Positions 7,556 through 49,721 of a stretch of 64,000 bases of DNA are shown in pieces. Source of the stretch: a virus; the IMG/VR virus record IMGVR_UViG_3300025137_000014, positions 123,123 to 187,122 of that record. The stretch is one strand, 5' to 3'. Positions within the stretch are counted from its first letter, which is position 1; each line of letters starts with the position of its first letter. The translations under genes were made by a program, and so were the position numbers. Under the pieces are notes generated by a model. The model made no database searches, was not told the origin of the DNA, and was given only the letters and a program-made list of their open reading frames with translations.

Positions 7556-8206
7556 ATGAAAAAAGTTAAAAAAATAATGAGTACAATTATACCAGAACCC
7601 AAAGAACAACCGGCACCGACGCCTCCACCTCCGATGCCAACTCCACCAGTTCCGCCAAAGCCGGCAGGTGAGTTCTTAAGAGAAAATGGTGTATTGTTTA
7701 TGGATAAAGAATTTAATCAAGATAACTGTATGCCTCTTGTAAAAATGATTGTTGAATATAATTTGATGCCAAAAGATAAAGCACCAGAAGTTATTCACTT
7801 GTATATCAATTCACCAGGTGGGTATGTAGATAGTTGTATGCATCTAATTGATACTATCAAGCAATCACGTATACCAGTATATACGTATGGAATGGGGTCT
7901 ATTGCAAGTTGTGGTGTCATGTTAATGATGAGTGGTGCTAAAGGACATCGTTATGTTACACAAAATACCGCAGTCATGTCACATGAATTTTCAGGTGGTA
8001 CAAAAGGTCAATATCACGATATGGTAGAAAGTCGTAAACATATGGACTGGACTAACGAGAAATTAATGGAACACTATATGAAATGTACAGGCAAGACACA
8101 AGCATACATTCGTAAACATATGTTAGCACCTAAGACAGACCATTGGCTTACACCAGAAGAAGCAGTCAAGCATGGTATCGCAGACGAATTAATTACTACT
8201 TACTAA
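7556..8206 (+). CDS. clpP: ATP-dependent Clp protease proteolytic subunit
   Basis: LYINSPGG, IASCG (Ser), MSHEF (His), DHWLTPEEAVKHGIAD; Pro-rich N-terminus. Confidence 0.9.
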   Translation: MKKVKKIMSTIIPEPKEQPAPTPPPPMPTPPVPPKPAGEFLRENGVLFMDKEFNQDNCMPLVKMIVEYNLMPKDKAPEVIHLYINSPGGYVDSCMHLIDTIKQSRIPVYTYGMGSIASCGVMLMMSGAKGHRYVTQNTAVMSHEFSGGTKGQYHDMVESRKHMDWTNEKLMEHYMKCTGKTQAYIRKHMLAPKTDHWLTPEEAVKHGIADELITTY

Positions 8207-8278
8207 CAGATTTCTATTGACTCTTGAGACAAAATCTGTTATTCTAACAGTAAGAATTTTGTAACAAAGGTGGGTCTT

Positions 8279-9229
8279 ATGAAGATTATATCAGGCAATA
8301 GTAATATTGAACTGGCGGCTAAAGTAGCTGAACATTGTTTCACAGATATTGTTCCAGCAGAAATAAAGACATTCGCAGACGGTGAATGTTCAGTAGAATT
8401 TCATGAAAATATTCGAGGAGAGGATGTGTTTATTATTCAAAGCACAAGTACTCCTGTAAATGATAACTTAATGGAATTATTGGTTATGATTGATGCGGCA
8501 AAACGTAGTAGTGCTAGTCGTATCACTGCCGTAATTCCTTATTTTGGTTATGCAAGACAAGATAGAAAGAGTGCATCACGTACTCCTATCACTGCAAAGC
8601 TAGTTGCGAATCTGCTTACAAAAGCAGGCGCAAATAGAGTACTAACAATGGACTTACATGCTGGACAAATTCAAGGCTTCTTTGATATACCTGTAGATGA
8701 TTTAACAAGCAGGTTAGTTTTTGCAAAAGATATTCAAAGACAGATTAGAGTAACAGAAGAACCAATTGTATTTGTTTCACCAGATGCTGGTGGTACAGTA
8801 AGAGCAAGAAAGTTTGCTGATATGTATCATGCCAATTATGCAATAGTTGATAAACGTAGACCCAAAGCAGGCAAGGCAGAAGTAATGAACTTGATTGGTG
8901 AAGTCAAAGGCAAACATGCAATACTAGTAGACGATATTGTAGATAGTGGTGGTACACTATGTAATGCGGCTGAGGCACTATTGGATGCAGGTGCATTATC
9001 TGTTAGAGCATATATTACTCATGGAGTACTAAGTGATAATGCATGTAGTAAAATTGAAAAAAGTAAATTAGATGAACTTGTTATTACTGATAGTATCCCA
9101 TCAATTAATGAGGGTGCTTGGAAAAAGACACGGGCAGTTAGTGTTTGTGGATTATTAGGAGAAGCAATCAGACGAGTCAATAACGAAGAAAGTGTAAGTA
9201 GTTTATTTAAGGTTAAGATACATTCATGA
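8279..9229 (+). CDS. prs: Ribose-phosphate pyrophosphokinase
   Basis: [45 protein letters not shown]. Confidence 0.97.
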
Positions 9230-9651
9230 GAATTAAATTAGATTTAAATAAGATTAATAGTAGGTTACACTGGACAACACTTTATAGTGAAAAATTATTA
9301 TTAGCAATAATTGGATTGCTAACAATGGTTGCGGCTTTTACAGACATTTATGAAATGCTAATCTATTTGAAAGTAGAACTAGGCGACTTGTTCTTGCTTT
9401 TCATTTATGCAGAGATTATAGGAATGGTGGGAGCATTTTATATTAGTAATAGAATACCTGTTACTCTACCTATCATTATTGCTATGACGGCACTTTGTAG
9501 ATTAATTGTTCTACATTCAAAAGAAGCAGACCCATGGATGCTTGTTGCAGAAGCAAGTGCTATTGCAGTATTGGCAGGGGCGGCTTATCTTATGAGTGCT
9601 AAAGAAAAACTGAGTTTAGAAAAAGATAAAATACGTGAGAAAAATAAATAA
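9226..9651 (+). CDS. psiE: Phosphate-starvation-inducible PsiE-like membrane protein
   Basis: [15 protein letters not shown]...[21 protein letters not shown]. Confidence 0.8.
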
Positions 9652-9664
9652 GAAAGGTAATTAA

Positions 9665-10177
9665 ATGTATAAGGTAACGGCATACTTTAGAGACCATAAA
9701 GTTGTTGAAAAGTTTTATAACTTATATGATGCAATAGATTTTAGAGATAGTGCAGATGCTAATTATCCTGAAAACGTAAAATTTGAAAAGGTAATATCAA
9801 TGAGAGAATGGGTAGTAGAATGTTGGAATAGTGTAATGGATATGGAGCATAATCCACTAAAGAATATTCCAGACTTTAGCACACGACATATGATTATGCA
9901 AGTATTAGCATGGATGTGGTGTATTGCGTTTGCATTCATCGTAAGTAGTATGTGGGCAGGAGTAATTAGTATGTTTGTTCATACAGTATTACTAGGAGCC
10001 ATTGCAATCACAGTTGCTACATTTGAAACAGCAAAACGCAAGCCAACTGCATTTAACTTCATAAACGGATATAACTCACATGGTAGAGCAAGGACTTATA
10101 CTATCTGGAGAGATAAAAAAGGTAATGCACATAAAGTACAGTTAGATGCCAATGATCCAGGCGGAGAACACGAATAA
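9665..10177 (+). CDS. Hypothetical membrane protein
   Basis: 170 aa, two TM segments; possible internal start at MREWVV. Confidence 0.6.
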   Translation: MYKVTAYFRDHKVVEKFYNLYDAIDFRDSADANYPENVKFEKVISMREWVVECWNSVMDMEHNPLKNIPDFSTRHMIMQVLAWMWCIAFAFIVSSMWAGVISMFVHTVLLGAIAITVATFETAKRKPTAFNFINGYNSHGRARTYTIWRDKKGNAHKVQLDANDPGGEHE

Positions 10178-10182
10178 ATCAT

Positions 10183-10211
10183 TTGACAATCATCGTTGAA
10201 CAGAGTAGAAT
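10183..10211 (+). promoter_or_regulatory. Sigma70-type promoter (leaderless helicase)
   Basis: TTGACA-17-TAGAAT, ATG 6 nt downstream. Confidence 0.75.
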
Positions 10212-10217
10212 AGAAGT

Positions 10218-11621
10218 ATGGCAGAAGAAGTAAAAGATTACAATTTAGATTTACAGAAATTGTTTGTTCAGTTCATGTTAACTGATCCTGAACTTTATAC
10301 AAGAGTTAGGGCAATAGTAGAGCCTAAGTATTTTGATAGAAATCTAAGAAAAGTAGTTGAACTCTTAGTCAATCATACTGAGGAATACTCTACGATTCCA
10401 ACTACTGAAATTATTAAAGCACAAACTGGACAAGAGATAGAAAAATTAGATGATATCGGTCAACATGCAGATTGGTTTATTGATGAGTTTGAAACATTCT
10501 GTAGGCATAAGGCAATAGAAAGAGCAATCATTGATAGTGCAGACTTACTAGAGACAGGCAAATATGGTGAAGTAGAACTTAGAATTAAAGAGGCAGTACA
10601 AACTGGACTAGCCCGTTCATTAGGTACAGACTATTTTGCAGATCCTAGAGCAAGACTTGAAAAGCTAAAAGATAACAATGGTCAAATTACGACTGGTTGG
10701 AAATCATTAGACGATAAATTATATGGTGGCATCAATCGTGGTGAGATAACTATTTTTTGTGGTGGGTCTGGTGCAGGTAAATCTTTGTTTATGCAAAACA
10801 TGAGTTTGAATTGGGCAGAAGCAGGTTTAAATTGTGTATACTTTACACTTGAACTTTCAGAAGAACTATCAAGTATGCGTATGGATGCGATGCTAACAGA
10901 TAGAAGTACAAAAAGAATTTTTAAAGAATTAGATGATGTAGAATTACAAGTTAGAACTAAAGGCAAATCGTCTGGAATGTTACGTGTTAAGTATCTTCCT
11001 TCTGGTTCCACAGTTAATGATATACGTTCTTATATTAAAGAATTGCAAATACAAACTGGCAAACGAGTTGATTGTATGTGTGTAGATTACTTAGATTTAT
11101 TAATGCCAGCAACAAAGAAAGTATCAGCAAGTGATTTGTTCATTAAAGACAAATATGTAGCAGAAGAAATTCGTAATTTTGCAATGGAAACTGAGACAGT
11201 TTTAGTAACTGCATCACAATTAAATAGAAGTGCAGTAGAAGAAATTGAATTTGACCATTCTCATATCGCAGGTGGTATATCTAAAATTCAAACTGCGGAT
11301 AATGTTATTGGTATCTTTACAAGCCAAGCAATGAGAGAACGTGGACAATATCAGTTACAGCTATTAAAAACACGTTCATCAAGTGGTGTAGGTAGTAAAA
11401 TTAATCTAGTATTTGATAGAGATAGTCTTAAAATCTCAGATGATACAGAAGGGTTAACTGACGACCAAACAACGTCAAATACGATGAGTGTGGTTGATAC
11501 ATTACGACAAAAAACTACAGTAAACGCACCAGAAACTAACACAGAAGCAAAAACTGATGTTGCAATGAACTTGAGAGCAATGTTGAAGACCAAGACACGT
11601 TCTCCTTTTGATGAAAACTGA
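10218..11621 (+). CDS. Replicative DNA helicase (DnaB/T4 gp41-like)
   Basis: Walker A GGSGAGKS, FTLELSE, VDYLDL, TASQLNR. Confidence 0.93.
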   Translation: MAEEVKDYNLDLQKLFVQFMLTDPELYTRVRAIVEPKYFDRNLRKVVELLVNHTEEYSTIPTTEIIKAQTGQEIEKLDDIGQHADWFIDEFETFCRHKAIERAIIDSADLLETGKYGEVELRIKEAVQTGLARSLGTDYFADPRARLEKLKDNNGQITTGWKSLDDKLYGGINRGEITIFCGGSGAGKSLFMQNMSLNWAEAGLNCVYFTLELSEELSSMRMDAMLTDRSTKRIFKELDDVELQVRTKGKSSGMLRVKYLPSGSTVNDIRSYIKELQIQTGKRVDCMCVDYLDLLMPATKKVSASDLFIKDKYVAEEIRNFAMETETVLVTASQLNRSAVEEIEFDHSHIAGGISKIQTADNVIGIFTSQAMRERGQYQLQLLKTRSSSGVGSKINLVFDRDSLKISDDTEGLTDDQTTSNTMSVVDTLRQKTTVNAPETNTEAKTDVAMNLRAMLKTKTRSPFDEN

Positions 11622-11648
11622 TAAATACAGTTAGAACGGAGAAATATC

Positions 11649-11897
11649 ATGGATAAACCTCGTAAGAGCCTATTTGAAGAACTAAATTCTTTAGCTTTTG
11701 ATAAAGAAAAAGAACGTTTAGTGGAGCAAAAAGGTGAACATATCATATCAGGAGCGATAAATCTTATAGAATTTATCAATCGTGAGTTTGATGGCGAGAC
11801 TGCAAATGACTTAACTAAGAGATTAGTTAATAGCATTAGGTCTCAAGATCCGAGAAAGTTTAAACGTGGTATAAAAAGTGTCAAGGCTAAAACATAA
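11649..11897 (+). CDS. Hypothetical phage protein
   Basis: 82 aa with GGAG RBS, after late promoter 11620. Confidence 0.7.
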   Translation: MDKPRKSLFEELNSLAFDKEKERLVEQKGEHIISGAINLIEFINREFDGETANDLTKRLVNSIRSQDPRKFKRGIKSVKAKT

Positions 11898-13461: not shown

Positions 13462-13465
13462 TTAG

Positions 13466-25727: not shown

Positions 25728-26343
25728 AGTTTGGTTATTTGGAGAAACATCTGAGTTTTCACAATCAATATTAAAAGAATTAAAAAATAAATCAGATGAT
25801 ATTCAAACATTTGGTAGAAGTAATATATCTTATAATGATCCTGTTATAGAACAGATTAATCTAAGTAAATTCCCACCCGATAAAATTATTATAAATGTGA
25901 ATTTAGATTGGAATAAGGGTGAAATAAAATACAGTGATAGATGGGAAAAACCTTTAACAATTATAAGTTCTATTTCAGAATTATTGAGATATTGTTATAT
26001 AGAAACATCTAAAAATATAACAGTAGTATATGTAACAAGTTCAGTAACAATTCAACCATTAAATGATAAAGATTTTATTAACTGGAAAGATTATATTTCT
26101 ATACGACATACTCAGCAAGCCATGTGGTCTGCATATGATTCAAAAAAACTTAAAGTATTAGCAGTTAGTCCTGCTAATTTAGATGATAATAATAGAAAAA
26201 AGTATGCAGAAAGATTAGTAGAAATTGCTTATAATCCACCAATAGATAGAAAATCTATAATAGATTTAAGTTGGTACGGTGGATGGAAAAACAATGGTTA
26301 CGAAAAAAATGAATGGCGTAATCTTTACGAAATTGATAAATAG
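25720..26343 (+). CDS. Degenerate SDR-like protein, tandem paralog
   Basis: WLFGETSEFS, YVTSS, YISIR, VLAVSP. Confidence 0.5.
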   Translation: MSKVWLFGETSEFSQSILKELKNKSDDIQTFGRSNISYNDPVIEQINLSKFPPDKIIINVNLDWNKGEIKYSDRWEKPLTIISSISELLRYCYIETSKNITVVYVTSSVTIQPLNDKDFINWKDYISIRHTQQAMWSAYDSKKLKVLAVSPANLDDNNRKKYAERLVEIAYNPPIDRKSIIDLSWYGGWKNNGYEKNEWRNLYEIDK

Positions 26344-26347
26344 ATAT

Positions 26348-27037
26348 ATGCGTATAGAAGAAATCATAAAATCTGTAGAAGAAGGTATTAATGACCCTCA
26401 TATATTTAAAGCAGTATTCATGGCTGGCGGCCCTGGTTCAGGAAAGTCATTTGTTGCTAAAAAGTTCCTTACAGGAACAGGTTTAAAGATGGTTAATTCA
26501 GACGAAATATTTGAACACCTAATGAATAAAAACAATTTACCATTAGAACCAGATACTATTGTTTCGCCACAAGGTAGAGAACAAAGAGATAGAGCCAAAG
26601 TACTAACACAGAAACGTAAAAATACTTATATTGATGGACGTTTGGGTTTAATTATTGACGGTACTGGCAAAGACGTAATGAAGATTGGTAAAATTAAAGA
26701 AGAACTAGCAAAAATCGGTTATGATAATATGATGCTATTTGTTAACACAAGCGAAGAAGTAGCACAGGATCGTAATACTCAACGTGCAAGAAGTATCCCA
26801 ACAGAACTAGTAACAAAAATGTGGAAACAAGTACAAGATAACATTATGAAGTTTCAACAAATGTTTAGTGCAGGACGTTTCTTTGTTGTTGATAACTCTG
26901 GCGGATTAGAAGATCCAGAAAGAGCAGAAAATTTTACAAAAGTTAATAAGTCTATTGATAAATTTCTTATTCAACCACCAACTAAGCGTCAAGCTAAACA
27001 GTGGATTGAAGACCAAAAAGCCAAACGTTCAAGTTAA
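26348..27037 (+). CDS. P-loop kinase (zeta-toxin/AAA_33-like)
   Basis: AVFMAGGPGSGKS, VNSD, IIDGTG, AQDRNTQRAR; start MRIEEI 5 nt after GATAAATA. Confidence 0.75.
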   Translation: MRIEEIIKSVEEGINDPHIFKAVFMAGGPGSGKSFVAKKFLTGTGLKMVNSDEIFEHLMNKNNLPLEPDTIVSPQGREQRDRAKVLTQKRKNTYIDGRLGLIIDGTGKDVMKIGKIKEELAKIGYDNMMLFVNTSEEVAQDRNTQRARSIPTELVTKMWKQVQDNIMKFQQMFSAGRFFVVDNSGGLEDPERAENFTKVNKSIDKFLIQPPTKRQAKQWIEDQKAKRSS

Positions 27038-32407: not shown

Positions 32408-33320
32408 TAAACTAAAATTACTCATAATAGGACCTGGCGCGGCCAGTAATTTTATTAGTTCAAGAATAATAAGTGCAGATACAATACAAATCGATTCAGA
32501 TACTAATGAATATTATAATGTGAGAGACTACAGTGAAATGACTGATTCAGCATTATTAGATTATATCAATAAAAATACAGTTAAGAAACCACACACTATT
32601 CATAGTTTAGAACGTGTTGCTAAATTATTAGATTCATTTGATTGGGAAACAGGAGAGCATAATTCTACTGTGCAAGGACATGAATATACTATCGCAGTAG
32701 AGAAAATTAAAGAATCGTGGGAAACATGTGAGCATAACAGAATGGCAGTTTTTTGGCTTGAATCACTCTACAAAGGCATGTATCAGTTTAAAAATATTAG
32801 TAAGCATATTGATATTTTAAATAATGCTGATTGGTGGAAAGAAGCAGAGAGATTCATATTTGATTGGCAAATTGCAGGATGGTCAATGCACTATAAAGAA
32901 GATAGTAAGTTGCATTCTATCGAACATTATTTAAGTAAAAATGAAAAAATAAATGATAAAATGGCAGAAATAGTCAACATAGGGGTGTTACATGTAGACG
33001 GAACTACTACGTCCTTTATCACAGATATACTAAATATGAAACATATGTCTGAGAATATTAAAAATAATTTACCGCCGGTATCTACATCATTGCGTCCAAA
33101 TACATATGAAATGGGCTGGGCTGATATAATATTTGATTATAAGAAGTTGTTCTTTTATAATGATCCTAAAGAACTATATAATTTATTTAACTTTTTTGAT
33201 AAGGGTAAATACTTTAAAGATAATGAGAAAAAAGAAATAAACGCATTTCGTGATTACCATATAAGAAACGTAAACTATTATGTTGATAATTGGGAACAAA
33301 TGAGCGAGGAGGCTAAATGA
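32394..33320 (+). CDS. Hypothetical protein (possible sulfotransferase-like N-terminus)
   Basis: LLIIGPGAASNFIS loosely resembles a 5'-PAPS loop. Confidence 0.45.
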   Translation: MPKSDKLKLLIIGPGAASNFISSRIISADTIQIDSDTNEYYNVRDYSEMTDSALLDYINKNTVKKPHTIHSLERVAKLLDSFDWETGEHNSTVQGHEYTIAVEKIKESWETCEHNRMAVFWLESLYKGMYQFKNISKHIDILNNADWWKEAERFIFDWQIAGWSMHYKEDSKLHSIEHYLSKNEKINDKMAEIVNIGVLHVDGTTTSFITDILNMKHMSENIKNNLPPVSTSLRPNTYEMGWADIIFDYKKLFFYNDPKELYNLFNFFDKGKYFKDNEKKEINAFRDYHIRNVNYYVDNWEQMSEEAK

Positions 33321-33832
33321 CAGTTTTAACACTGATTGATGAAACAGACAAAAGACTAAGACAAGTATGTACTAAACACAAGATAGATGATGCTACAGAA
33401 AAGCTAGTATATGATATGATTGTAACTATGCAAGATAATGATGGTATTGGTCTGGCGGCACCACAGTTAGGTGTTATGGAACAGATATTTGTCATAGGCC
33501 ATAAAGATGCAGGGTTTGTTGTTTGTATAAACCCAAGTTGGACTCCAACTACAGATGCCAAGTTAGAAAAGTTTGTAGAAGGCTGTTTAAGTTTTCCGCA
33601 TTTAGCATTGAATATAGAAAGATATAATCAAGTACATTGTACATTTACTAATTTGCAAGGTGAAATACAAACTCGTTTATTTAATGGAGTATGGGCTCAA
33701 GCAGTACAGCATGAACATGACCATTTAATGGGTATAACATTTGATAAAAGAGCAAAGACAAGTCAACTAAGCAGAGCATTAGCAAAACGTAGAGAGAAAT
33801 TAAAAAGAATTCAAAAGAGAAGCAATGATTAA
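33317..33832 (+). CDS. def: Peptide deformylase
   Basis: GIGLAAPQ, EGCLS, QHEHDH. Confidence 0.96.
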   Translation: MTVLTLIDETDKRLRQVCTKHKIDDATEKLVYDMIVTMQDNDGIGLAAPQLGVMEQIFVIGHKDAGFVVCINPSWTPTTDAKLEKFVEGCLSFPHLALNIERYNQVHCTFTNLQGEIQTRLFNGVWAQAVQHEHDHLMGITFDKRAKTSQLSRALAKRREKLKRIQKRSND

Positions 33833-36108: not shown

Positions 36109-36462
36109 ATGAAAACATCAATTATTGGACTGCTAGTCGCAGTCTTTTTTTCTGCAAACGCAATGGCAGAAGAATCAAATGTAACAACAAATATCGATTG
36201 GTCTTTAAAACTTGAAAGACAAGTAGAAGCACAAGCCAACACAGGCGAACTAATGGGTACTATGGCTGTTTTTGGACTAGACGTATCAGCAGGCGGTCTA
36301 TGGAATATTGACAAAACAGGTGAAGACTTTATTGACATGAATAAAATTATGTTGAATGCAAGTCGTTCATTGTCTGACAATGCAAGTGTCTATATAAAGA
36401 ATGATTTTGATACTGATTGGGATAGAACTGAGTCAACTATTGGTCTACAGCTTACATTTTAA
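36109..36462 (+). CDS. Small secreted outer-membrane beta-barrel-like protein
   Basis: Signal peptide ending ANAMA, alternating beta pattern, C-terminal GLQLTF; AAGGAGG RBS; promoter TTGACA-18-TATAAT at 36021. Confidence 0.65.
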   Translation: MKTSIIGLLVAVFFSANAMAEESNVTTNIDWSLKLERQVEAQANTGELMGTMAVFGLDVSAGGLWNIDKTGEDFIDMNKIMLNASRSLSDNASVYIKNDFDTDWDRTESTIGLQLTF

Positions 36463-36466
36463 TTTG

Positions 36467-36497
36467 TTGACAAAAACACCACTATAGTGTATAAATA
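36467..36497 (+). promoter_or_regulatory. Composite early/late promoter for tmRNA
   Basis: TTGACA-17-TATAAA(TA): the -10 box doubles as the TATAAATA late motif. Confidence 0.7.
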
Positions 36498-36501
36498 TAG
36501 A

Positions 36502-36786
36502 TGTTAACGTTGAAGCAACGTAGACACATACTGGACTGGGGGGCAGTACCCCACAGCTCCACCATAATTACTTTGTAGCGTAAAAACTACAAATTTACGG
36601 CATAGAGTAATTATGATGGGGCTGATATAGGATCGACAGGTGTGAAAGTGAAGTGGAGTTGACCGAGTGACTTCGTTATTGGTCAAAAACTATAATTGCA
36701 AACGCAAATTATCAGCCAGAAATGGCAATGGCGGCCTAATTTAGGCACGTAGGGGTTGGTGACTTACCTGGCAACAGAAAAGTCAT
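36502..36786 (+). ncRNA. ssrA: Permuted two-piece tmRNA
   Basis: Acceptor piece ends GGGGGCAGTACCCCACAGCTCCACCA (CCA 36562-36564); IVS 36565-36617; coding piece starts GGGGCTGA at 36618; G3:U70 acceptor stem; tag GCA..TAA 36698-36739 = ANANYQPEMAMAA*. Confidence 0.92.
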
Positions 36787-36816
36787 GTTTTATTTAGGAG
36801 TGGGTATTAATATCAT

Positions 36817-37155
36817 ATGGCATATGTAGTTACAGAGGATTGTATCAAATGTAAATACACAGATTGTGTAGAAGTTTGTCCAGTTGATTGTTTTTATGAA
36901 GGTGAAAATATGCTTGTTATTAATCCAGATGAGTGTATTGACTGCGGAGTATGTGAACCGGAATGCCCGGCAGAAGCTATAATACCCGATACGTCCCCAA
37001 AATTTACACAACGACTATATGATATCAATGATAAATGGTCAAGAGAATGGCCAGTCATTACAGAACAAAAAGACCCCTTACCGGATGCTGATAAACTAAA
37101 TCCAGCTATGGGATACACAGAAGATAAAGTAAAGTTGTTAGACGAATATGACTGA
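36817..37155 (+). CDS. fdxA: Ferredoxin (FdxA, 7Fe-type)
   Basis: [21 protein letters not shown]...[12 protein letters not shown]. Confidence 0.93.
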
Positions 37156-39373: not shown

Positions 39374-39402
39374 TTGACAATACCGAATCATTATGCTATA
39401 TT
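39374..39402 (+). promoter_or_regulatory. Strong sigma70 promoter with no downstream ORF
   Basis: TTGACA-17-TATATT with extended TG. Confidence 0.8.
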
Positions 39403-39407
39403 AATAA

Positions 39408-39719
39408 CATAAGCATCAGAGAGTTTAGCGACTTAATGATTGTAGTGCAAGGAAGAGGCCTTTACCAGAGGGTCGAACTTGACTAGCTAGGGGTGGTACC
39501 CAGGTTCAAAGCTGAGAGGCCAAGAGTCACATCGCTCTACCGAGCGGAACTAGGTTCCCTTATTTCAGATGGTATCTGTGTTATGGGGTTGTAGGTATAA
39601 CCGAATCCTACCTACTTTGCTTATATTTTATGATTGCAATACCAAGCAATCAAAAATTAAGAGACGGTTGGCAAACCATATTTTTACTCACTTTCATTCA
39701 GCCAACTGTCTCTTTTTTT
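39408..39719 (+). ncRNA. Candidate structured non-coding RNA of unknown class
   Basis: GC-richer than flanks; multiple stems (CGCTC-TACC-GAGCG, CAGAT-GGT-ATCTG, GGAAC-TAG-GTTCC, TGACT/AGTCA); 3' pseudoknot; own promoter and terminator. Confidence 0.65.
39661..39719 (+). terminator. 12-bp stem terminator between convergent units
   Basis: GAGACGGTTGGC...GCCAACTGTCTC followed by T7. Confidence 0.7.
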
Positions 39720-40545
39720 ATTTCCCTAACTTATCTAATGCTGAAATCATTCTAGTCATACCGATTCCGCCACCTACTCTTGGGAAGAAATCAAACTCTA
39801 AGAATTTTTCTAGTTCTGCTTCTACTCTTTCTTTAGAGAATAGTTTGTATAGTAATTCTGAATATTCACCATTTGCTATTGTGTGAAAAGTATCTCTCAT
39901 CATTGCTACATCACATGAACGTTCTGCGGATCCAATAGTTTCCATTCCACCTAATATTACATCTATTTTCTTACTTGTAGCTCCACCTTCATTTCTACTC
40001 ATATTCCAGAACGGAGATGTCATTTCAGGAAAATCTGTAATCATCGTTGAACCGAATTCTTCAAACATTTTAGTTTCGTGTTCTGCTTCCATTTCTATTG
40101 TTGGTTCTAAGTTATAGTGCTTTTGCCAATCAGCATATGTTCTTTCTTCTGGTTTAGAAAACATTAGATATTCACATAATTCATATTCCATCTTTTTCAA
40201 ATCATCAATGTCACCTGGCATTTCAAATTCAAACATTGGGAAGATTATATCATGTCTACCCGGAATAGCATTTGGTTCTTGTCTATAGGACGTGGAGACA
40301 CAAAAAAAGCCCTTACTATCGGGCTTAGAGAGTAATTCGTGTTCTAGCCACATTTGGCCTGTTTGGGGAAGTGGCCAGACCTGGTCTGCATAGTTATATG
40401 TTGCTACATTGAACGGGTCTTCACATGCCGCTAATATAGATAATCTGTTTTGGGTATGGACTTCTAAAAATCCTTTATCCAAAAAAAATGACCTTAAAAG
40501 GCCAACTGTTCTTGTAAATTTATCCGGAGATATTAATTGTGTCAT
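39718..40545 (-). CDS. Class II aaRS catalytic-domain-only protein (AsnRS/AspRS-like; possible asparagine synthetase)
   Basis: STSYRQE..RH motif 2, GGGIGMTR motif 3, GMETIGSAER; no anticodon-binding OB domain; start MTQLIS. Confidence 0.75.
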   Translation of the reverse strand: MTQLISPDKFTRTVGLLRSFFLDKGFLEVHTQNRLSILAACEDPFNVATYNYADQVWPLPQTGQMWLEHELLSKPDSKGFFCVSTSYRQEPNAIPGRHDIIFPMFEFEMPGDIDDLKKMEYELCEYLMFSKPEERTYADWQKHYNLEPTIEMEAEHETKMFEEFGSTMITDFPEMTSPFWNMSRNEGGATSKKIDVILGGMETIGSAERSCDVAMMRDTFHTIANGEYSELLYKLFSKERVEAELEKFLEFDFFPRVGGGIGMTRMISALDKLGK

Positions 40546-40694
40546 TTTCTTTTCCTTTTTGTTATCCAAAAAAAAATATAGCCAAAAAAAATTCTGGTAT
40601 TCGTTTTTTGTATTGCTTTTATTTATCAAAGTTATCAACAACACAATTAAAAATTGTATTGATTTATGTTTAATTATATGTTATCTTAATAAAT

Positions 40695-40789: not shown

Positions 40790-41752
40790 ATGGACGCATT
40801 AACTTTATGGATGGCAATAGGATTTCTATTTGCCGCATATTCAGTAATCGCAAACGATTCAGTACAAACTCTTGGTACTTGGATTGCATCAAATAACGAA
40901 AAATTTAATTGGAAGATAATGTGGGGAGCCGCAAGTTCGGTACTGCTTTATACTTTGTGGTATGGTTGGTATACTAATGGCGGAGATATTAGTTACGGAC
41001 GATTAAACAAAATTCCATTTCAAGAAATACAATGGTATCATGCCGCCGCACCAGGCTTACTATTGATATTAACAAGAATAGGTGTACCAGTGAGTACAAG
41101 TTTCTTAGTGCTAAGTGCATTTGCTAGTACATTTGTATTAGAAAAGATGCTAGTCAAATCAATGATGGGTTATGCAGTTGCGGCTGTGGCGGCTTATATT
41201 ATTTGGATAGGAGTTACTAAGATACTAAACGAAGCAAAGCCTGTTAAAGAAGAACACAAGAAAGCATGGCGTGTAGCACAATGGGTAACAACAGGCTTTT
41301 TATGGTTCACTTGGCTATCACATGACATGGCAAATATTGCAGTATTCTTGCCAAGAGAAATACCTTGGGACTTAATGGTGCTAGTAAGTGCAGTGTTTGT
41401 AATAGGACTAGGATATATGTTCCGTGAAGGCGGAGGTAAGATACAAAACATTGTAATTGAAAAGCACAACACAAGATATGTACGTTCAGCAACTATTATT
41501 GATTGTGTATACTTTCTAATACTATTGTTCTTTAAAGAAATAAACGATATACCTATGTCAACAACATGGGTGTTTGTAGGTTTACTTTGTGGACGTGAAC
41601 TAGCTATGGCAACTATGACAGGCAAAGAAAAGTTTAAAACAGTATTTCCTTTGATTACTAAAGACTTTATCAAAATGATGATAGGTTTGGGTGCATCAGT
41701 AGGTGTAGTTTTAGCAATTCATTATGTAATTGTACCAAATGGGTTACACTAG
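40790..41752 (+). CDS. PiT/PHO4-like inorganic phosphate (or anion) transporter
   Basis: About 10 TM segments; repeated signature ANDSVQT and SHDMANI (GANDVAN-like); PVSTS and PMSTT. Confidence 0.65.
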   Translation: MDALTLWMAIGFLFAAYSVIANDSVQTLGTWIASNNEKFNWKIMWGAASSVLLYTLWYGWYTNGGDISYGRLNKIPFQEIQWYHAAAPGLLLILTRIGVPVSTSFLVLSAFASTFVLEKMLVKSMMGYAVAAVAAYIIWIGVTKILNEAKPVKEEHKKAWRVAQWVTTGFLWFTWLSHDMANIAVFLPREIPWDLMVLVSAVFVIGLGYMFREGGGKIQNIVIEKHNTRYVRSATIIDCVYFLILLFFKEINDIPMSTTWVFVGLLCGRELAMATMTGKEKFKTVFPLITKDFIKMMIGLGASVGVVLAIHYVIVPNGLH

Positions 41753-42848: not shown

Positions 42849-42949
42849 AAATCCCTATATTATCTCACTTTTTTATCTATTAAAAACTTGACAGAACCAC
42901 CTTTATCCTGTATACTATGAGTATATTAATCAAAAGAGAGGTTTATAAA

Positions 42950-43465
42950 ATGAGAAAATATATTATTGCGTTGATTGGTTCTGTTATGTTGTTATCTACA
43001 ACTGCAAATGCCAATACAACTAGAGTACAAGTTGAAACTATCTCAAGTAATGCTATTACGCAACAAGTAGTTCAAAAAACACCTTCACAACAATGTAACA
43101 TAGTTGATGTACCTATTTACAGTACACAAAACAATGCTAGTTCAGGTGATGTATTATTTGGTGCTATTATTGGTGGTGTAATAGGTAATCAGTTTGGTAA
43201 AGGTAAAGGCAACGATGCGGCTACGGCTTTAGGTGCTATTATTGGTGCAGATGCGGCTAATAAGAAAAAATCTTCACAGACTATTGTAGGTTACAAGCAA
43301 GTACAACAATGTAACGTAATCTATATTGAAACAGTTACAGATAAGGTTGTAGGATATAATACTACATTCAGAGATAATAACGGACAAACATATGTGTATC
43401 AGACTGGTTCACAATGGAAAGTCGGTACTATTGCATTCTTAAACGTTACAACAACACTAAATTAA
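42950..43465 (+). CDS. Secreted glycine-zipper 2TM protein
   Basis: Signal peptide; GAIIGGVIGNQFG...ATALGAIIG. Confidence 0.8.
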   Translation: MRKYIIALIGSVMLLSTTANANTTRVQVETISSNAITQQVVQKTPSQQCNIVDVPIYSTQNNASSGDVLFGAIIGGVIGNQFGKGKGNDAATALGAIIGADAANKKKSSQTIVGYKQVQQCNVIYIETVTDKVVGYNTTFRDNNGQTYVYQTGSQWKVGTIAFLNVTTTLN

Positions 43466-43567
43466 ATACTAAATCAGTACTAAGCTATACGAAAGTATAA
43501 CGTAGAAGTTAAATTCTCCTTCCTATTTAGATAAATACAGATGAGGTCTACTAAGAAGGAGAATATT

Positions 43568-45118
43568 ATGTTATTTCCAATTATCACCTTTGCTACGGCT
43601 ATTGCGATAGCTTTTATAGCCGCGTGGTTTTCAATCGTCGGACTTATGGCGATTTTTGCCGCCTCAGCAATACCAGTAGCATTAATGGCAGGTTCACTTG
43701 AAGTCGGCAAACTTATTGCCGCCTCATGGGTGTACCGTAATTGGAAGAGGGCTCCATTTCTATTAAAATTTTATTTGACAATAGCAGTTGTCGTATTGAT
43801 GTTCATCACTAGCATGGGTATTTTCGGTTTCTTATCGAAAGCACACCTAGAACAAGCCGCTCAGGGAACGGCTAACATTGCCAAGGTTGAACGTATTGAT
43901 AACGATATTATCAGGTTTAATTCAATAATAGAACGTACTGAAATCAAGATAGCTAAACTTGAGAATGAAACTAGTGATGATTCATCAGATGTCAATGCAC
44001 AGATTGATGCAGAGCAAAAACGTATGGATAATGCGTATGCTCGTATTCAGCCTGCGATTGATGAACAGTTAAACATCATTAAACAAGAACAGAAAGGTTC
44101 TGAGGACCAAGTAAAGTCGTATACTGACCAGATTAATCGTATTGACGATACTTTAGCTAAGATACAATCTTATGCTGAAAATGTCGATAATCCAGATAAT
44201 GTGAAAAAGATACAGGCTATGATTGGTACGAAAGTAGATGGAAAGTACGGATATATTACTGCTGGCAAAGTTACTAAGTATATTGAGAAATCAAATGCTG
44301 ATAAAGAAAAACTAATTGCTATTGTAGAAGATATTCGTAATTCAGTAAACACAGATATTATCGACCAGGCACGTGAAGAAATAAAACGTTTACGTGGTAT
44401 GGCAGACAGAGAAATTCAAAATGCACAAGATAATATTAATCGTCTACGAAATGTGTTAACACAAGTAGGAGAAATTGACAATACAGATGAGATAGATACT
44501 TTAGTTTTAAAGGTGTCAAATACGGAGCAGGAAATCGAAGTTCTTTATGATGAGAAATTCGAATTAGAAAGTGAAGTTAGACAACTTGAAGCAGAAGTAG
44601 GACCAATCAAGTATATTGCAGAATTAATATATGGAGAAACTAATCCCACTATTATTGATTCGGCTGTACGTTGGTTAATTATCGTCTTTATTTTTGTATT
44701 TGACCCATTGGCTGTTATTCTGTTGATTGCGGCAAACTATAGTTTTGCTAATAGAAACAATAATGAAGGCAGACAACAAGAAATGTTTGAAGGACTTTTT
44801 CACAAAAATGAAAAGAAAACGCTTGACAAAACGACCTCAATGAGCGATAATAAAGATATTGATTTAAATACAGAAACGAATGAAACTGTTGATGAAATCA
44901 AAGATGAAATTAAAGATGAAGAAGTTATAGAAAATATGGAAGAAGTTAAATCAGAAGATAAAAAGACTGGCGGTGTATATTTAGACCCAGCCGAAATTGA
45001 TTTAAAGAACATTGATGAGAAATCATTAAAAGAAATTAAATCAAAAGTAGAAAGGGAAATAAATACTAAAGCAGAGAAAAGGTCTGGCTGGTTAGATGAT
45101 TTAAGTAATGGTAAATAA
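43568..45118 (+). CDS. Membrane-anchored long coiled-coil protein
   Basis: Three N-terminal TM segments, coiled coil, FVFDPLAV TM, acidic tail. Confidence 0.7.
   Translation: MLFPIITFATAIAIAFIAAWFSIVGLMAIFAASAIPVALMAGSLEVGKLIAASWVYRNWKRAPFLLKFYLTIAVVVLMFITSMGIFGFLSKAHLEQAAQGTANIAKVERIDNDIIRFNSIIERTEIKIAKLENETSDDSSDVNAQIDAEQKRMDNAYARIQPAIDEQLNIIKQEQKGSEDQVKSYTDQINRIDDTLAKIQSYAENVDNPDNVKKIQAMIGTKVDGKYGYITAGKVTKYIEKSNADKEKLIAIVEDIRNSVNTDIIDQAREEIKRLRGMADREIQNAQDNINRLRNVLTQVGEIDNTDEIDTLVLKVSNTEQEIEVLYDEKFELESEVRQLEAEVGPIKYIAELIYGETNPTIIDSAVRWLIIVFIFVFDPLAVILLIAANYSFANRNNNEGRQQEMFEGLFHKNEKKTLDKTTSMSDNKDIDLNTETNETVDEIKDEIKDEEVIENMEEVKSEDKKTGGVYLDPAEIDLKNIDEKSLKEIKSKVEREINTKAEKRSGWLDDLSNGK
44823..44851 (+). 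promoter_or_regulatory. Intragenic sigma70 promoter upstream of clpX
   Basis: TTGACA-17-GATAAT inside the CDS. Confidence 0.55.
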
Positions 45119-45135
45119 TAAAGAAAGCATAAACA

Positions 45136-46407
45136 TTGTCAGATAAAAAAGATTATCATTGTTCATTTTGTGGAAAGCACAAGAATGAAATTAGTACATT
45201 AATTGCAGGTCCGGCAACGTATATCTGTAATGAGTGTATTGACCTATGTCATTCTATTGTACATGAACGCAAGGATGTAACTAAAAAATCTAAAACTGTA
45301 AACAGTGACACTCCGACACCTGATGAAATTAATGAGTTTTTGAATGCTCATGTAATTGGTCAGGAAGAAGCTAAAGAAGTCTTGAGTGTGGCTGTTTACA
45401 ATCATTATAAAAGAATTTCACAACCAGAAGACGATGATGTAGAATTAGAGAAATCTAATGTAATGATGCTTGGTCCTTCTGGTACAGGTAAAACACTCTT
45501 AGCGAAAACAATCGCAAAGTTTTTAGATGTTCCTTTCGCACAAGTTGATGCGACCACATTAACAGAAAGTGGCTATGTAGGTGAAGATGTTGAGAATGTA
45601 ATTCAACGTTTACTTATGTCCTCTGATTTTGAGATTAAGAAAGCAGAACAAGGTATTATCTATATCGATGAAATAGATAAGAAAGCTAAAAAGGGTGAAA
45701 GTATTTCTATCACTAAAGATGTTAGTGGTGAAGGTGTTCAACAAGCCTTACTAAAAATTGTTGAAGGTACGGTTGTTCGTGTTCCGCCAGGTGGTGGAAG
45801 AAAACATCCCGGTGCAGAAATGCTTGAAGTTGATACAAGCAAAATATTATTCATTGTTGGTGGTGCATTTGTAGGACTTGATAAAGTAATTAAACGAAGA
45901 TTGAATGCTAATGGTTCAATTGGTTTTGGTGCTAGAGTTATGTCACAAGACAACAATGATATGAAAGTATCCCAAGAAGTATTGCCAGAAGATGTAATTA
46001 AATATGGTATTATTCCAGAATTTATGGGACGTTTTCCAATACTAGTAGGTATTAATGACTTAACAGAAATTGAGTTAAGCCGAATACTAACAGAGCCAAA
46101 GAATAATTTAACTGCACAATTTAAAAAGATTTTTAAACTAGACGGTGTAGATTTGAATTTTACTGAGGACGCAATAACAGAAATCTCTAAAATGGCAAAA
46201 ACAAATAAGACAGGAGCAAGAGGTCTTAGAAGTGTTTTAGAAAAGTCATTATTAAAACTACAATTCAAATTACCTAAGCTATCAAAGAATGCTGGCTTAA
46301 CGTCTGTTGAAATTACTGGTGACTTTATCAAAAACAAATCAGATCCAATTTTGGTATTTAAGGATGTTGTAGAGGAAACAAAAAATATAAATGAAAAGAA
46401 ACTTTAA
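45136..46407 (+). CDS. clpX: ATP-dependent Clp protease ATP-binding subunit
   Basis: CSFC..C..C zinc domain, [21 protein letters not shown] loop, GARGLR. Confidence 0.97.
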
Positions 46408-46933
46408 GGAAGAAGGGCGAAAGCCTTTCGTCATTGCCAATCAACGTATTCGTGCAGACGAGTTACGTGTGGTAACAGACCAAGGTGAACAACTTGGTGT
46501 CATGCAAAAAGATGAAGCACAACAAAAGGCTGATGCCGAAGGACTAGATTTAGTTCTGATTGTTCCTAATGCAAATCCTCCAGTAGCAAAGATTATTAGT
46601 ATTAATAAATACAACTACGAAATTAAAAAACGTGACAAAGAGAAGGCAAAATTAGCCAGACAAAGTTTAGTTGAAGTTAAAGAAGTTAAGTTTAGACCAG
46701 CTATAGGTGAGAACGACCTAAAGATGAAACTTATGCAGGTTCAAAAGTTTATTGACAAAGGCAATAAAGTAAAAGTGACAATACAAATGAGAGGCAGAGA
46801 GAATTCTAAATCAAGTGAAGTTTTAGATTTCTTCAATTCCCAAATCTCTGAGTACTTAAGTAGTTTTAAGTATGACCTCCCTCTAAAAACTAATGGGAAT
46901 AGAATAATAGGTATAGTAATAAAAAATGACTAG
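46391..46933 (+). CDS. infC: Translation initiation factor IF-3
   Basis: [42 protein letters not shown]. Confidence 0.93.
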
Positions 46934-47201
46934 TTACAATAATAGTTATAAAAGCAGAAATAACAGAAATGACAGGAACGATTTTACACAAACAGGAAAA
47001 TCAGGCCTAACAGTACATGTAAGAGACGGACAATTCGAAAGAGCATTAAGAAAGTTCAAAAAGAAAGTCCAAGAACACGGCATTATACAAGAGGTGCGTG
47101 ACAGAAAGGCTTATGTTAAACCAAGTGAAATTAAACGTAAAGCTAAGGACGCCGGCAAAAAGCGTTGGTACAGAAAAAGAAAAGAGAGTGAATTCCAATA
47201 A
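46926..47201 (+). CDS. rpsU: Ribosomal protein bS21
   Basis: VHVRDGQFERALRKFKKKV..GIIQEVRDRKAYVKPSE. Confidence 0.9.
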   Translation: MTSYNNSYKSRNNRNDRNDFTQTGKSGLTVHVRDGQFERALRKFKKKVQEHGIIQEVRDRKAYVKPSEIKRKAKDAGKKRWYRKRKESEFQ

Positions 47202-47202
47202 A

Positions 47203-47226
47203 AAAGGGGAACCTAAGTCCCCCTTT
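47203..47226. terminator. Bidirectional terminator
   Basis: AAAGGGGAAC-CTAA-GTCCCCCTTT between convergent genes. Confidence 0.7.
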
Positions 47227-47248
47227 AAATATTAATGATTAGTTTTTA

Positions 47249-47566
47249 TTAGAACAAATGATTATCAGAGAATTCTTCAAAAATTGGTTGACTATCTGTA
47301 AATGCAGACATTTGAGAACCGATATCGGTTTCAATCGCAGTCATAGTTTCGTTATTTGGGTAAACAACGGTAACCATGCCTTCAAATTTATCAGTAGTCA
47401 ATTCTTCTTTATATTTTGTAGCATCGTTCAAGTCTATGCCGTTATCAGAAAGAATTGTTCTCATAAGGGTATAGTATGAATCGTAGTTATTCTCAGAAAT
47501 CAGTTGTGCATTATCATCATATTGTTTTACAATATGTGGATAAAATACTTTAGTTTCTTTAATCAT
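47249..47566 (-). CDS. Hypothetical acidic protein
   Basis: 105 aa, GGAGG RBS, late motif upstream. Confidence 0.65.
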   Translation of the reverse strand: MIKETKVFYPHIVKQYDDNAQLISENNYDSYYTLMRTILSDNGIDLNDATKYKEELTTDKFEGMVTVVYPNNETMTAIETDIGSQMSAFTDSQPIFEEFSDNHLF

Positions 47567-47636
47567 AATAGGTGGCCTCCTAAAAATACTGTTTGATTAT
47601 ATACTTATTTATCAAAAAACATAGAAGGATATTAAA

Positions 47637-47882
47637 TTGACCATAGATTTAGACAAATTATCATTAAGAGAACTGCAACAAGAAAGCACTAGAGCATTGC
47701 TTACGCAGGACGGTACTAGTGGTGGTATATCAAAATATAACAAAAAAGCTAATCATAATAGTCAACTTTGGTACAAAGCAGTCCTAGAAGACTATATTGA
47801 GAAATATGGCGGTCTTCCTTGTGATGCAGGACCTTCGAAGGGAATTGTACTTTTTTCAGAAAAACTTGAGAAAAAGACTTGA
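47637..47882 (+). CDS. Hypothetical protein
   Basis: 81 aa, TTG start, AAGGA RBS. Confidence 0.55.
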   Translation: MTIDLDKLSLRELQQESTRALLTQDGTSGGISKYNKKANHNSQLWYKAVLEDYIEKYGGLPCDAGPSKGIVLFSEKLEKKT

Positions 47883-48000
47883 CATTTCTACCATTAATGA
47901 TTATATTATAATATGTACATATATTATGTATAAATAACTATGTAGATTGCTTTAGATAGGATCTACATTTAAATCAACTTGCTTAACAAAGGAGTAAACA

Positions 48001-48438
48001 ATGACAAACGGACTATCTATTTTTAACCAGTTACGACCTGTAACTGTAGGCTTTGACAACATGTTTGACCATTTCGAATCAATGTTCGATGGAAACGGCC
48101 CAACATTTCAAACACAAGTAAACTTCCCACCTTACAACATAGTAAAAACAGGTGATTTCACTTATGATGTAGAACTGGCACTTGCTGGTTTCTCAAAAGA
48201 TGATATTACAGTTGACTATGCTGATAACATCTTATCTGTTAAATCAATCAAAAAAGATGAGAAGAAAGAAGAAGGCGTTCTTCATAGAGGTATCTCTAAG
48301 AGAATGTTTTCTAAATCTTTCACTATCGCAGATGATGTTGAAGTAAAAGGTGCTGAGTTGAAGGACGGGTTACTAAAAGTATCTTTAGAACGTATCGTTC
48401 CAGAAGGTAAAAAGCCTCGTAATATTGAAATCTCATAG
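48001..48438 (+). CDS. Small heat-shock protein Hsp20 (IbpA-like)
   Basis: FPPYNI, ELALAGF, LHRGISKRMF, AELKDGLL; early (47879) and late (47929) promoters. Confidence 0.93.
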   Translation: MTNGLSIFNQLRPVTVGFDNMFDHFESMFDGNGPTFQTQVNFPPYNIVKTGDFTYDVELALAGFSKDDITVDYADNILSVKSIKKDEKKEEGVLHRGISKRMFSKSFTIADDVEVKGAELKDGLLKVSLERIVPEGKKPRNIEIS

Positions 48439-48504
48439 TAGAAAATATTACTTCATAAATAGAAGCGAGGGCTAGTTCCTCGCTTCCTCATGGAGTAATA
48501 TAAA

Positions 48505-49362
48505 ATGAATAAACATACATCTGTATGGTGTCAACCCAGGTCAGGGTCGTCTGCATACTGTAATCATCTAAAAAAAACTAGAAAAGTATTTTCTGACTCT
48601 GCACAAGAGTTTATGTCTGCCTCTCAATTTTGGCCTATGTTGCAAGAACCAGGAACAGACTCAGCAGACAATTTTAAAATGTCAATAGAAAGTTTTCCAT
48701 ACGATAACGAATTAAGAATTAAACTTAAACATGACGCATATAAGATTTATGATAATATAAAAAATACACATAATCCAAAGTGGTTATGGACAGATTGGAA
48801 ACTGACTGATAAAGGTATTAAGCCTTATTATACTAGAAGTATACCAAGACATTATTTAGAAGACACATTCCCTTCAAGACCATGGGCACAAGAACTACTC
48901 ACACAATCAAAAGTACCAGAAGTAATAAAGTTATATAATTATGATAATTTTCAATTTGAAGATATTGCATATGATACAAATCATCATTTATTAATTAGAG
49001 AGCCGTTAGATAACGCATTAAGTCAGATTGTTGCATATATAACTATGGTATGGCATCAAGAAAGTAATGATGAAAATAAAGTAAGAATTAAAGAAACAAT
49101 TAGTTTTAAGCCTATAAAAAATGACCCTCATAAGAAAACACCATATCAAATAGCAGAGTATTGTTTTAAATCTAATATTGATATGTTGGAACAGTTGGGG
49201 GACAAAGTAGATGTTATAGCAAAGTATGAGGATATGGAATTTAAAAATAATCGTTATAAGAAAATGCATACATTACGAGAGAAATTAGCAGTGTGTTCAG
49301 ATTTACATTTCTTAGACGATATGAGAAATAACTATAATAAAAGACTTGATTCATTACTCTAA
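48505..49362 (+). CDS. Sulfotransferase-like protein
   Basis: QPRSGSS 5'-PSB loop, IREPLDNALS 3'-PB, KYED. Confidence 0.6.
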   Translation: MNKHTSVWCQPRSGSSAYCNHLKKTRKVFSDSAQEFMSASQFWPMLQEPGTDSADNFKMSIESFPYDNELRIKLKHDAYKIYDNIKNTHNPKWLWTDWKLTDKGIKPYYTRSIPRHYLEDTFPSRPWAQELLTQSKVPEVIKLYNYDNFQFEDIAYDTNHHLLIREPLDNALSQIVAYITMVWHQESNDENKVRIKETISFKPIKNDPHKKTPYQIAEYCFKSNIDMLEQLGDKVDVIAKYEDMEFKNNRYKKMHTLREKLAVCSDLHFLDDMRNNYNKRLDSLL

Positions 49363-49406
49363 AAATGATATAATTCAGATAAATAGTTTAGACAGTGAGA
49401 AAATAA

Positions 49407-49721
49407 ATGCAAACACAAAACGATAGCGAAACAATAGTTGATTCATCTTCTAGGACTTCAATAGAACCCCCTAAAAGATACTATGTTGTTATGCATAATG
49501 ATGATGGTACGCCTATCGAATTTGTAGTAAAAATATTAATGGACCTGTACAAACACGAAGAACAAACGGCGACTGACTTAGCAAATAAAATTCACGTAGA
49601 TGAAAAAGCTATTGTCGGTATGTTCAATTTAGAAATAGCAGAACAGAAGGTGGAAGAGACTCACGGAGCAAGTAGGGCGCATGGTTACCCATTAACGGTG
49701 ACATTAGAACAAGCAGATTAA
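49407..49721 (+). CDS. clpS: Clp adaptor ClpS
   Basis: PPKRYYVVMHNDDGTPIEFVV...AEQKV...YPL. Confidence 0.92.
   Translation: MQTQNDSETIVDSSSRTSIEPPKRYYVVMHNDDGTPIEFVVKILMDLYKHEEQTATDLANKIHVDEKAIVGMFNLEIAEQKVEETHGASRAHGYPLTVTLEQAD

Follow-up and report, generated by a model that had tools for sequence, protein, structure and literature searches.

A 64,000-nucleotide stretch of viral DNA (the window; positions 123,123 to 187,122 of IMG/VR virus record IMGVR_UViG_3300025137_000014) encodes the unfoldase ClpX, initiation factor IF3, ribosomal protein bS21, Hsp20 (a heat-shock protein of the small type), and the N-degron adaptor ClpS, in that order. It also encodes a transfer-messenger RNA (tmRNA), a peptide deformylase (PDF), and a ClpP-family protease. 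Comparison with related genomes indicates that this is the proteostasis and translation block typical of its lineage, a large T4-type jumbo-phage family. As to what the block does, we think it a little better than an even bet that the phage supplies host-type factors to maintain translation and protein quality control during infection. The main features (with open reading frames, or ORFs, of no assigned name given as orf plus a number) are:

7556-8206, + strand: ClpP2, a ClpP-family serine protease (PF00574, 119 bits, against a Pfam cut-off of 20)
33317-33832, + strand: PDF (PF01327, 126 bits)
36454-36830, + strand: tmRNA, permuted two-piece alpha-type (Rfam and ARAGORN agree)
43541-45118, + strand: orf525, a membrane protein directly upstream of clpX, whose N-terminal transmembrane helices precede a long coiled coil, a further transmembrane helix, and an acidic tail
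45136-46407, + strand: ClpX unfoldase (TTG start; zinc finger, AAA_2, and D2-small domains)
46391-46933, + strand: IF3, infC (ATG start; N domain PF05198, C domain PF00707)
46926-47201, + strand: bS21, rpsU (PF01165; an Asn/Arg-rich N-terminal extension of 27 residues)
48001-48438, + strand: Hsp20, small heat-shock protein with an alpha-crystallin domain, IbpA-like (PF00011, 68 bits)
49407-49721, + strand: ClpS, N-degron adaptor (PF02617, 87.5 bits)

A first-pass annotation of the window had listed eight items (tmRNA, ClpX, a ClpP, ClpS, PDF, IF3, bS21, and Hsp20) as a translation quality-control and proteolysis circuit, and all eight are present at or inside positions 7556-49721 (for ClpP, at the level of the family). 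As it also stated, clpX, infC, and rpsU overlap: clpX and infC share 17 nt, and infC and rpsU share 8 nt.

The window is the final part of a 187,122-bp record (G000) with an estimated completeness of 51% and a G+C content of 34.6%. The record is collinear with positions 117,024-308,786 of G001, a relative whose 342,607-bp genome is complete and has terminal repeats, at a nucleotide identity of 75-92%. It contains a T4-type Gp23 capsid gene, adjoined by the gene for a gp21-type prohead protease, and sequence from the cassette was found in marine or seawater metagenomes from at least six studies. The source is a T4-type jumbo phage from the sea, about 340 kb in size, and its features are of the alphaproteobacterial type. 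A BLAST comparison of the tmRNA with 151 sampled alphaproteobacterial genomes gave matches of 25-58 nt alone, mostly in the tRNA-like domain, and these name no host.

The order of the block is conserved. We scanned IMG/VR with ClpX and kept the best 80 of 143 loci (ClpX identity of 48-92%, on contigs of up to 518 kb). Gene order was counted in the 69 loci, all on uncultured phage contigs, that had enough flanking DNA. Upstream of clpX, orf525 is present in 67 of the 69. Downstream of clpX, we found IF3 in 51 loci, bS21 in 53, Hsp20 in 65, and ClpS in 66, and the order was always the same. The most frequent form of the locus is identical to that of the G000 window. Because one fixed order runs through 69 loci, the genes are not a chance gathering. 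The first-pass annotation had suggested looking at co-occurrence across phages, and these genes do not occur independently of each other among the relatives. As for the other two elements, 15-17 of 35 larger records carry an alpha-type tmRNA, in most cases at a distance of 8-20 kb from clpX. The PDF gene is 5-7 kb upstream of clpX in one subgroup and within about 12 kb of it in some relatives, and in G003 (complete, 518.6 kb), PDF directly adjoins a ClpA-type gene (positions 484235-488169).

These counts bear on a first rival explanation, which is that the genes are unrelated host-derived auxiliary genes in a permissive region, with no functional coupling. IF3, bS21, and PDF do come and go among relatives, and the promoter candidates suggest that hsp20 and clpS belong to separate transcription units. 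However, order and adjacency persist as ClpX identity falls from 92% to 49%, they are shared by phages of Alpha- and of Gammaproteobacteria, and clpX, infC, and rpsU mutually overlap. We consider the absence of coupling highly improbable and, because gene order is conserved, the least likely of the three rival explanations that we weighed.

In a FastTree phylogeny, 73 phage ClpX sequences, including those of Agrobacterium phage Atu_ph07 and Sinorhizobium phage Phosso, lie opposite 80 bacterial ClpX sequences from many phyla (these being among the matches listed in a pattern scan), and the branch between them has a support of 100%. The closest bacterial ClpX are 50-56% identical to the phage protein. 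The tree and the gene order indicate that clpX was captured once, long ago, and that it has been inherited vertically with hsp20, clpS, and usually infC and/or rpsU, in fixed order.

ClpX from the window aligns over its full length with E. coli ClpX (8e91, 479 bits) and scores above the curated NCBIfam cut-offs (568 bits vs 359 for NF003745 and 549 vs 371 for TIGR00382). Its N-terminal C4 zinc-binding domain (PF06689, 57.5 bits) has zinc ligands C9, C12, C31, and C34, which are invariant among 16 phage sequences. The Walker A and B motifs, the pore-1 motif GYVG, the RKH loop (GGRKHP), the ClpP-docking loop (IGFG), and the arginine/sensor motif GARGLR are all kept. (That the IGF and RKH loops are intact had been noted in the first pass, and residue-level alignment to E. 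coli ClpX agrees.) The predicted role of the phage ClpX is that of an ATP-dependent unfoldase that delivers to ClpP. IF3 and bS21 pass their equivalog cut-offs as well (TIGR00168, 145 bits vs 60, and TIGR00030, 57 bits vs 29, respectively).

The ClpP of the window, which we term ClpP2, is a divergent, phage-only paralogue: it belongs to the ClpP family, yet it is no orthodox ClpP. When aligned to solved ClpPs, it has the catalytic triad (Ser118/His143/Asp195), which is invariant in 12 phage homologues, and its N-terminus bears a conserved extension (residues 14-37) that is rich in proline. It misses the curated NCBIfam cut-offs for ClpP (111 bits vs 249 for NF001368 and 83 vs 309 for TIGR00493). 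In a tree with 77 bacterial ClpPs, the 13 ClpP2-type sequences are set apart by a branch whose support is 100%. The canonical protein is encoded elsewhere in the record:

48214-48819 of G000, 75 kb before the window: ClpP1, canonical (PF00574, 260 bits)

ClpP1 scores above one NCBIfam cut-off (NF001368, 305.5 bits vs 249) and slightly below another (TIGR00493, 288 vs 309). Both ClpP types are also present in G001 and in another relative, G002. Thus, the window's ClpP does belong to the family named in the first pass, but it is not the canonical enzyme, which lies outside the window.

We did not find a ClpA-type protein in the 187-kb G000 record. G001, however, encodes a 738-aa ClpA at about 15 kb, within the part that is missing from the G000 fragment. 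This protein has the Clp_N, AAA, AAA_lid_9, AAA_2, and D2-small domains, it matches E. coli ClpA over its full length (688 bits) and TIGR02639 at 902 bits, and its ClpP-docking loop contains an IGF tripeptide. ClpA-type genes are present in 15 of the 35 larger ClpX-bearing records. So, the set is fuller than the window shows, with ClpP1 in the same record and ClpA in G001, and by homology the full genome type carries ClpP1, the phage-only ClpP2, and ClpA. The Clp set is not uniform in the family, because the content of G004 (complete, 452.8 kb) differs: it encodes ClpX and ClpS, and its sole ClpP is a ClpP2-like gene (345688-346128). In G004, we found neither a canonical ClpP1 nor a ClpA-type lid domain, and PDF was likewise not found.

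The location of ClpP2 raises a second explanation, in which the Clp ATPases would serve phage DNA replication or virion assembly by remodelling complexes, instead of serving general quality control. Host ClpX remodels lambda O and Mu transposase complexes. In the window, ClpP2 starts 4 nt past the primase gene (6551-7552), inside the replication region and among genes for PRPP synthetase and DnaB helicase, and there is a promoter-like site at 6516, ahead of primase-ClpP2. Topoisomerase genes are the neighbours of clpX in Atu_ph07 and Phosso, and a replication role was proposed by the authors (PMC6102473). On the other hand, the invariant neighbours of clpX are hsp20, clpS, infC, and rpsU, none of which is a replication gene, and head maturation is already served by the T4-type prohead protease. 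We regard a replication or assembly role as quite unlikely. The PHROGs names suggest a head-maturation protease for ClpP2 itself, and we rejected this in view of the gp21-type protease beside the capsid gene and the site of ClpP2 in the replication region. With a head protease of the gp21 type in the genome, head maturation is the task of neither ClpP.

The tmRNA matches Rfam RF01849 at 122 bits (vs a gathering score of 50; model positions 1-355) and RF04321 at 118 bits. ARAGORN places its pieces as follows:

about 36525-36564, + strand: acceptor piece
36618-36646, + strand: 5' tRNA-like piece
36698-36739, + strand: tag ORF

In the acceptor stem, GGGGCUG/CAGCUCC-ACCA, the G3-U pair is present and the CCA is encoded. 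The tag from ARAGORN is ANANYQPEMAMAA, and the tag reading frame ends in a stop. In the phage family, the tags end in ALAA, AMAA, or AIAA. The tags of 21 sampled alphaproteobacterial tmRNAs have the form ANDN...A[LV]AA, and one ends in VAMAA. By its letters, ANANYQPEMAMAA is an ordinary alpha-type degron that fits AN[AD]N...A[LMV]AA, rather than a private tag. As it lies within the alphaproteobacterial range, it is not private to the phage, and we abandon the earlier suggestion that the phage has a tag of its own. No glutamine riboswitch was found here at the Rfam gathering score. Two-piece tmRNAs of marine phages (pelagimyophages and the OM43 phage Melnitz) were described by Buchholz et al. 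(PMC9004378), whose paper on Melnitz does not mention Clp genes. The best match to the G000 tmRNA in a deposited phage is SsrA of Melnitz, which is also a permuted alpha-type RNA in a marine T4-like phage (about 100 nt aligned, with 76% identity). As a pointer to the host, this partial match is no more than a lead.

Several partners of these systems were not found. The first-pass annotation had reported that SmpB, SspB, and ClpA are not in the window, and none of them was found in the whole 187-kb record. Beyond the record, the outcome differed by gene: SmpB (PF01668) was not found in the complete relatives G001, G003, G004, and Atu_ph07 either, while clpA is present in G001, as described above. 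Because SmpB was found in none of these four complete relatives, the phage tmRNA must use the host's SmpB. SspB and L/F-transferase (PF03588) were not found in G000, in the three complete uncultured relatives, or in Atu_ph07. With SmpB, SspB, and L/F-transferase not found in complete relatives, the phage system depends on host partners.

ClpS aligns with residues 9-106 of E. coli ClpS (2w9r), and its pocket is kept (HNDDGTPIEF...IHV). We take the pocket residues of the E. coli protein to be Asn34, Asp35, Thr38, and His66. At the E. coli gate residue, Met40, the phage protein has Ile. ClpS passes the Pfam cut-off but is below the NCBIfam equivalog cut-offs (best 84 bits vs 143). Similarly, Hsp20 is not an IbpA equivalog (104 bits against the IbpA model vs a cut-off of 212). 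PDF keeps the motifs GIGLAAPQ, EGCLS, and HEHDH and is marginally above the curated cut-offs (125.8 bits vs 125 for NF001159 and 105.5 vs 104 for TIGR00079).

A third explanation, and the one that the first-pass annotation had drawn, is that proteolysis is re-aimed: together with ClpS and the tag, the Clp machines of the phage would choose their own substrates and destroy host regulators, cell-cycle factors, or defence factors. An old phage ClpX clade that is distinct from the bacterial proteins would fit, as would a phage-only ClpP2 clade whose triad is conserved and which bears a proline-rich extension, and so would the replacement of the gate residue Met40 of ClpS by Ile. Also, the presence of ClpS without ClpA in G004 suggests that ClpS acts on host ClpAP, which is a role that Iyer et al. 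proposed for phage ClpS (PMC7824862). However, the 73 phage and 80 bacterial ClpX sequences are distinguished by two diagnostic positions alone (K183 vs Ile and Q376 vs Met), neither of which is in a recognition loop, and these loops are unchanged. The tag is of the host type, and no phage adaptor such as SspB was found. Overall, re-aiming seems unlikely. The sequences give no indication of altered specificity, and redirection to host regulators or defence proteins is pure inference. A parallel, re-aimed system is not borne out, given the lack of SmpB in the complete relatives and the unchanged recognition loops of ClpX. What survives of the proposed circuit is the linkage of its genes among the relatives, with no sign of redirection or of a change in specificity.

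A more elaborate form of this idea is a phage-specific protease with a mixed ClpP1-ClpP2 core that is served by ClpX and ClpA-ClpS. It would remove host defence or cell-cycle proteins by its own choice of substrates, while tmRNA, IF3, and bS21 would bias ribosomes to phage messages. We consider this very unlikely. If it were true, jumbo phages of a family widespread in the ocean would have a layer of regulated proteolysis of their own.

We return to the explanation that we favor, the supply of host-type factors that maintain translation and quality control. The phage would bring its own supply of host-type factors that are labile or limiting. Translation and quality control could then continue once host expression has been shut down, for as long as it takes to infect a host that is slow and small-celled. 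Phage ClpX and ClpA would dock on phage ClpP via their IGF loops, and ClpS would hand N-degron substrates over to ClpA. With host SmpB for its charging and delivery, the tmRNA would free stalled ribosomes and add an ordinary degron (...A-M-A-A) that any ClpXP, phage or host, could read. Hsp20 would hold unfolded protein, and PDF would process the surge of new N-termini. IF3 and bS21 would keep 30S subunits ready for initiation. (Autoregulation of bacterial infC rests on a non-canonical start codon, and the phage infC starts with ATG.) We counted in favor of this explanation the canonical motifs found throughout: in ClpX, the ClpS pocket, ClpP1, the ClpP2 triad, ClpA of G001, and PDF. We likewise counted for it the identity of the phage, the fixed gene order, the old capture of clpX, the host-type tag, the reliance on host partners, and the possible expression in marine samples.

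Several points weigh against it. First, maintenance and re-aiming predict the same gene content. Second, the phages have long retained a ClpX whose identity to any bacterial ClpX is just about 53%, and they also have a phage-only ClpP2; this could point to a specialised job. Third, G004 has ClpX, ClpS, and a ClpP2-like gene without ClpA; as there is no phage ClpA there, ClpS would have to act on host ClpA. Finally, PDF, IF3, and bS21 are each absent from some relatives, so not all parts of the block are obligatory.

The same block has been annotated in a cultured phage. In Pseudomonas phage vB_PaeM_PA5oct (MK797984, Arenbergviridae), the genes EST35_0255-0260 are described in GenBank as clpX, S21, two hypotheticals, a heat-shock protein, and clpS, all on one strand and ordered as in the window. 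The PA5oct block differs in that it lacks infC and has QueD upstream of clpX instead of orf525. Also, the host of PA5oct is a gammaproteobacterium, and its ClpS is about 33% identical to ClpS of G000. Five to six genes downstream of clpS, at 174475-176890, PA5oct has genes for FtsH and for an "FtsH-interacting integral membrane protein" (YccA-like). In Atu_ph07 and Phosso (Polybotosvirus group), infC directly follows clpX, as in G000, and their ClpX are inside the same phage clade. These phages and Sinorhizobium phage AP-J-162, of the same group, differ from G000 in being soil phages of 470-490 kb whose ClpX is 52-53% identical and whose rpsU is apart from infC. The distance from clpX to clpS is about 16 kb in Phosso, and in Atu_ph07, no match of the ClpP2 type was found. 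The Clp set of Atu_ph07 has been described as ClpX, ClpA, ClpB, ClpP, and ClpS, plus DnaJ (PMC6102473). AP-J-162 is reported to have six Clp genes, with clpX beside IF-3, and Hsp20, S21, L7/L12, deformylase, and tmRNA (PMC11242549). Thus, the block was already annotated in PA5oct, with parts of it in Atu_ph07 and Phosso; it is real, and it is not new.

More broadly, ClpP, ClpS, ClpA, and ClpX of jumbo phages were treated by Iyer et al. (PMC7824862). In huge phages, IF3, S21 with N-terminal extensions, PDF, and tmRNA form a recurring repertoire for takeover of host translation (Al-Shayeb et al., 2020; PMC7162821). Some of those phages encode SmpB, whereas we found none in the G000 lineage, and the main text of that study does not mention Clp genes. 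The phage proteins belong to the same families as the bacterial ClpXP, ClpAPS, and tmRNA-SmpB systems, with the same functional motifs and the same A-x-A-A ending of the degron. The phage system differs from the bacterial ones in its clpX-infC-rpsU-hsp20-clpS layout, in having two ClpP types, and in lacking SmpB, SspB, and L/F-transferase. The bacterial arrangements are tig-clpP-clpX-lon and clpS-clpA.

Within and around the clpX-infC-rpsU unit, we noted these additional features:

42888-42916, + strand: sigma-70-like promoter candidate, TTGACA-17-TATACT, upstream of orf182, orf525, and clpX (11 of 12 consensus matches; a pattern match only)
42917-43465, + strand: orf182, a small glycine-zipper membrane protein (PF05433, 31 bits) and the first gene past the promoter candidate
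47203-47226, no strand assigned: GC-rich hairpin between the convergent rpsU (+) and orf105 (-)
47249-47566, - strand: orf105, with no assigned function, from the ORF list, which interrupts the block
47637-47882, + strand: orf81, a small conserved ORF in the gap between rpsU and hsp20, in the same place in 25 of the 69 loci
47879-47907, + strand: sigma-70-like promoter candidate, TTGACA-17-TATATT, upstream of hsp20

The hairpin is likely to be a two-way terminator that closes the clpX operon. Neither orf105 nor orf81 had any family matches. The nearest clusters to orf525 in a protein atlas are all viral, so we describe it as virus-only; the atlas gives no family name, and we found no Pfam or PHROG family for it. 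A Pfam match of orf525 to Tetraspanin is below the threshold (26.9 bits vs a cut-off of 32.1), and we rejected it. Partial homologues of orf525 are found in Pelagibacter phage Mosig (the best match in a cultured phage, 56% over parts) and in other large myoviruses. The match to Mosig is a weak lead to a SAR11-type host or to kinship with pelagimyophages.

There is also a hint of expression. Contigs from four marine metatranscriptome studies match pieces of orf525, clpX, positions 47219-47576, hsp20, and the tmRNA region, with 0-1 differences. This is only a hint that the block is expressed in nature, as carry-over of DNA into the RNA libraries is also possible. (RNA-library depth and uncovered stretches were not used to rank genes.) In the assemblies from the four marine RNA libraries, the deepest coverage is at 39436-39684, with a local depth of up to about 2,400. 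This stretch corresponds to a manA RNA motif (39424-39621, + strand; Rfam RF01745, 58 bits vs 55), which lies behind a TTGACA-17-TATATT site at 39374 whose spacer holds GAATC. GANTC in promoter spacers is not a pattern, as it is present in 1 of the 13 TTGACA-type sites in the window, the one at 39374. In three studies, contigs from RNA libraries connect 41043 with 41531 and so omit 487 nt of the ORF at 40790-41752, with 20 letters on the shorter side of the joint. Strain variation, an intron-like insert, or an artefact could account for this.

Four other features of the window are:

8270-9651, + strand: gene for ribose-phosphate pyrophosphokinase (PRPP synthetase), then a PsiE phosphate-starvation-inducible gene
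26279-27037, + strand: zeta-toxin-like / AAA_33 kinase domain protein
39718-40644, - strand: 308-aa protein with a class II aminoacyl-tRNA-synthetase core (PF00152, 65 bits) and without an anticodon-binding domain, possibly translation-related
52407-53915, + strand: full-length TctA subunit of a tripartite tricarboxylate transporter (PF01970, 293 bits)

We rejected the EF-P lysyl ligase EpmA as an identity for the 308-aa protein because NCBIfam gives weak AspRS and AsnA-like matches alone.

Beyond the published gene lists, we add the fixed order across the 69 uncultured contigs, the single phage clade of ClpX, and the phage-only branch of ClpP2; this is an incremental advance. Because cultured phages carry the genes (PA5oct, Atu_ph07, and Phosso), whether the block maintains host-type functions or re-aims them is directly testable. 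A large and globally distributed jumbo-phage family has long kept Clp proteases, a chaperone, a rescue RNA, and initiation proteins together, and we therefore argue that these functions may limit infection by giant phages.

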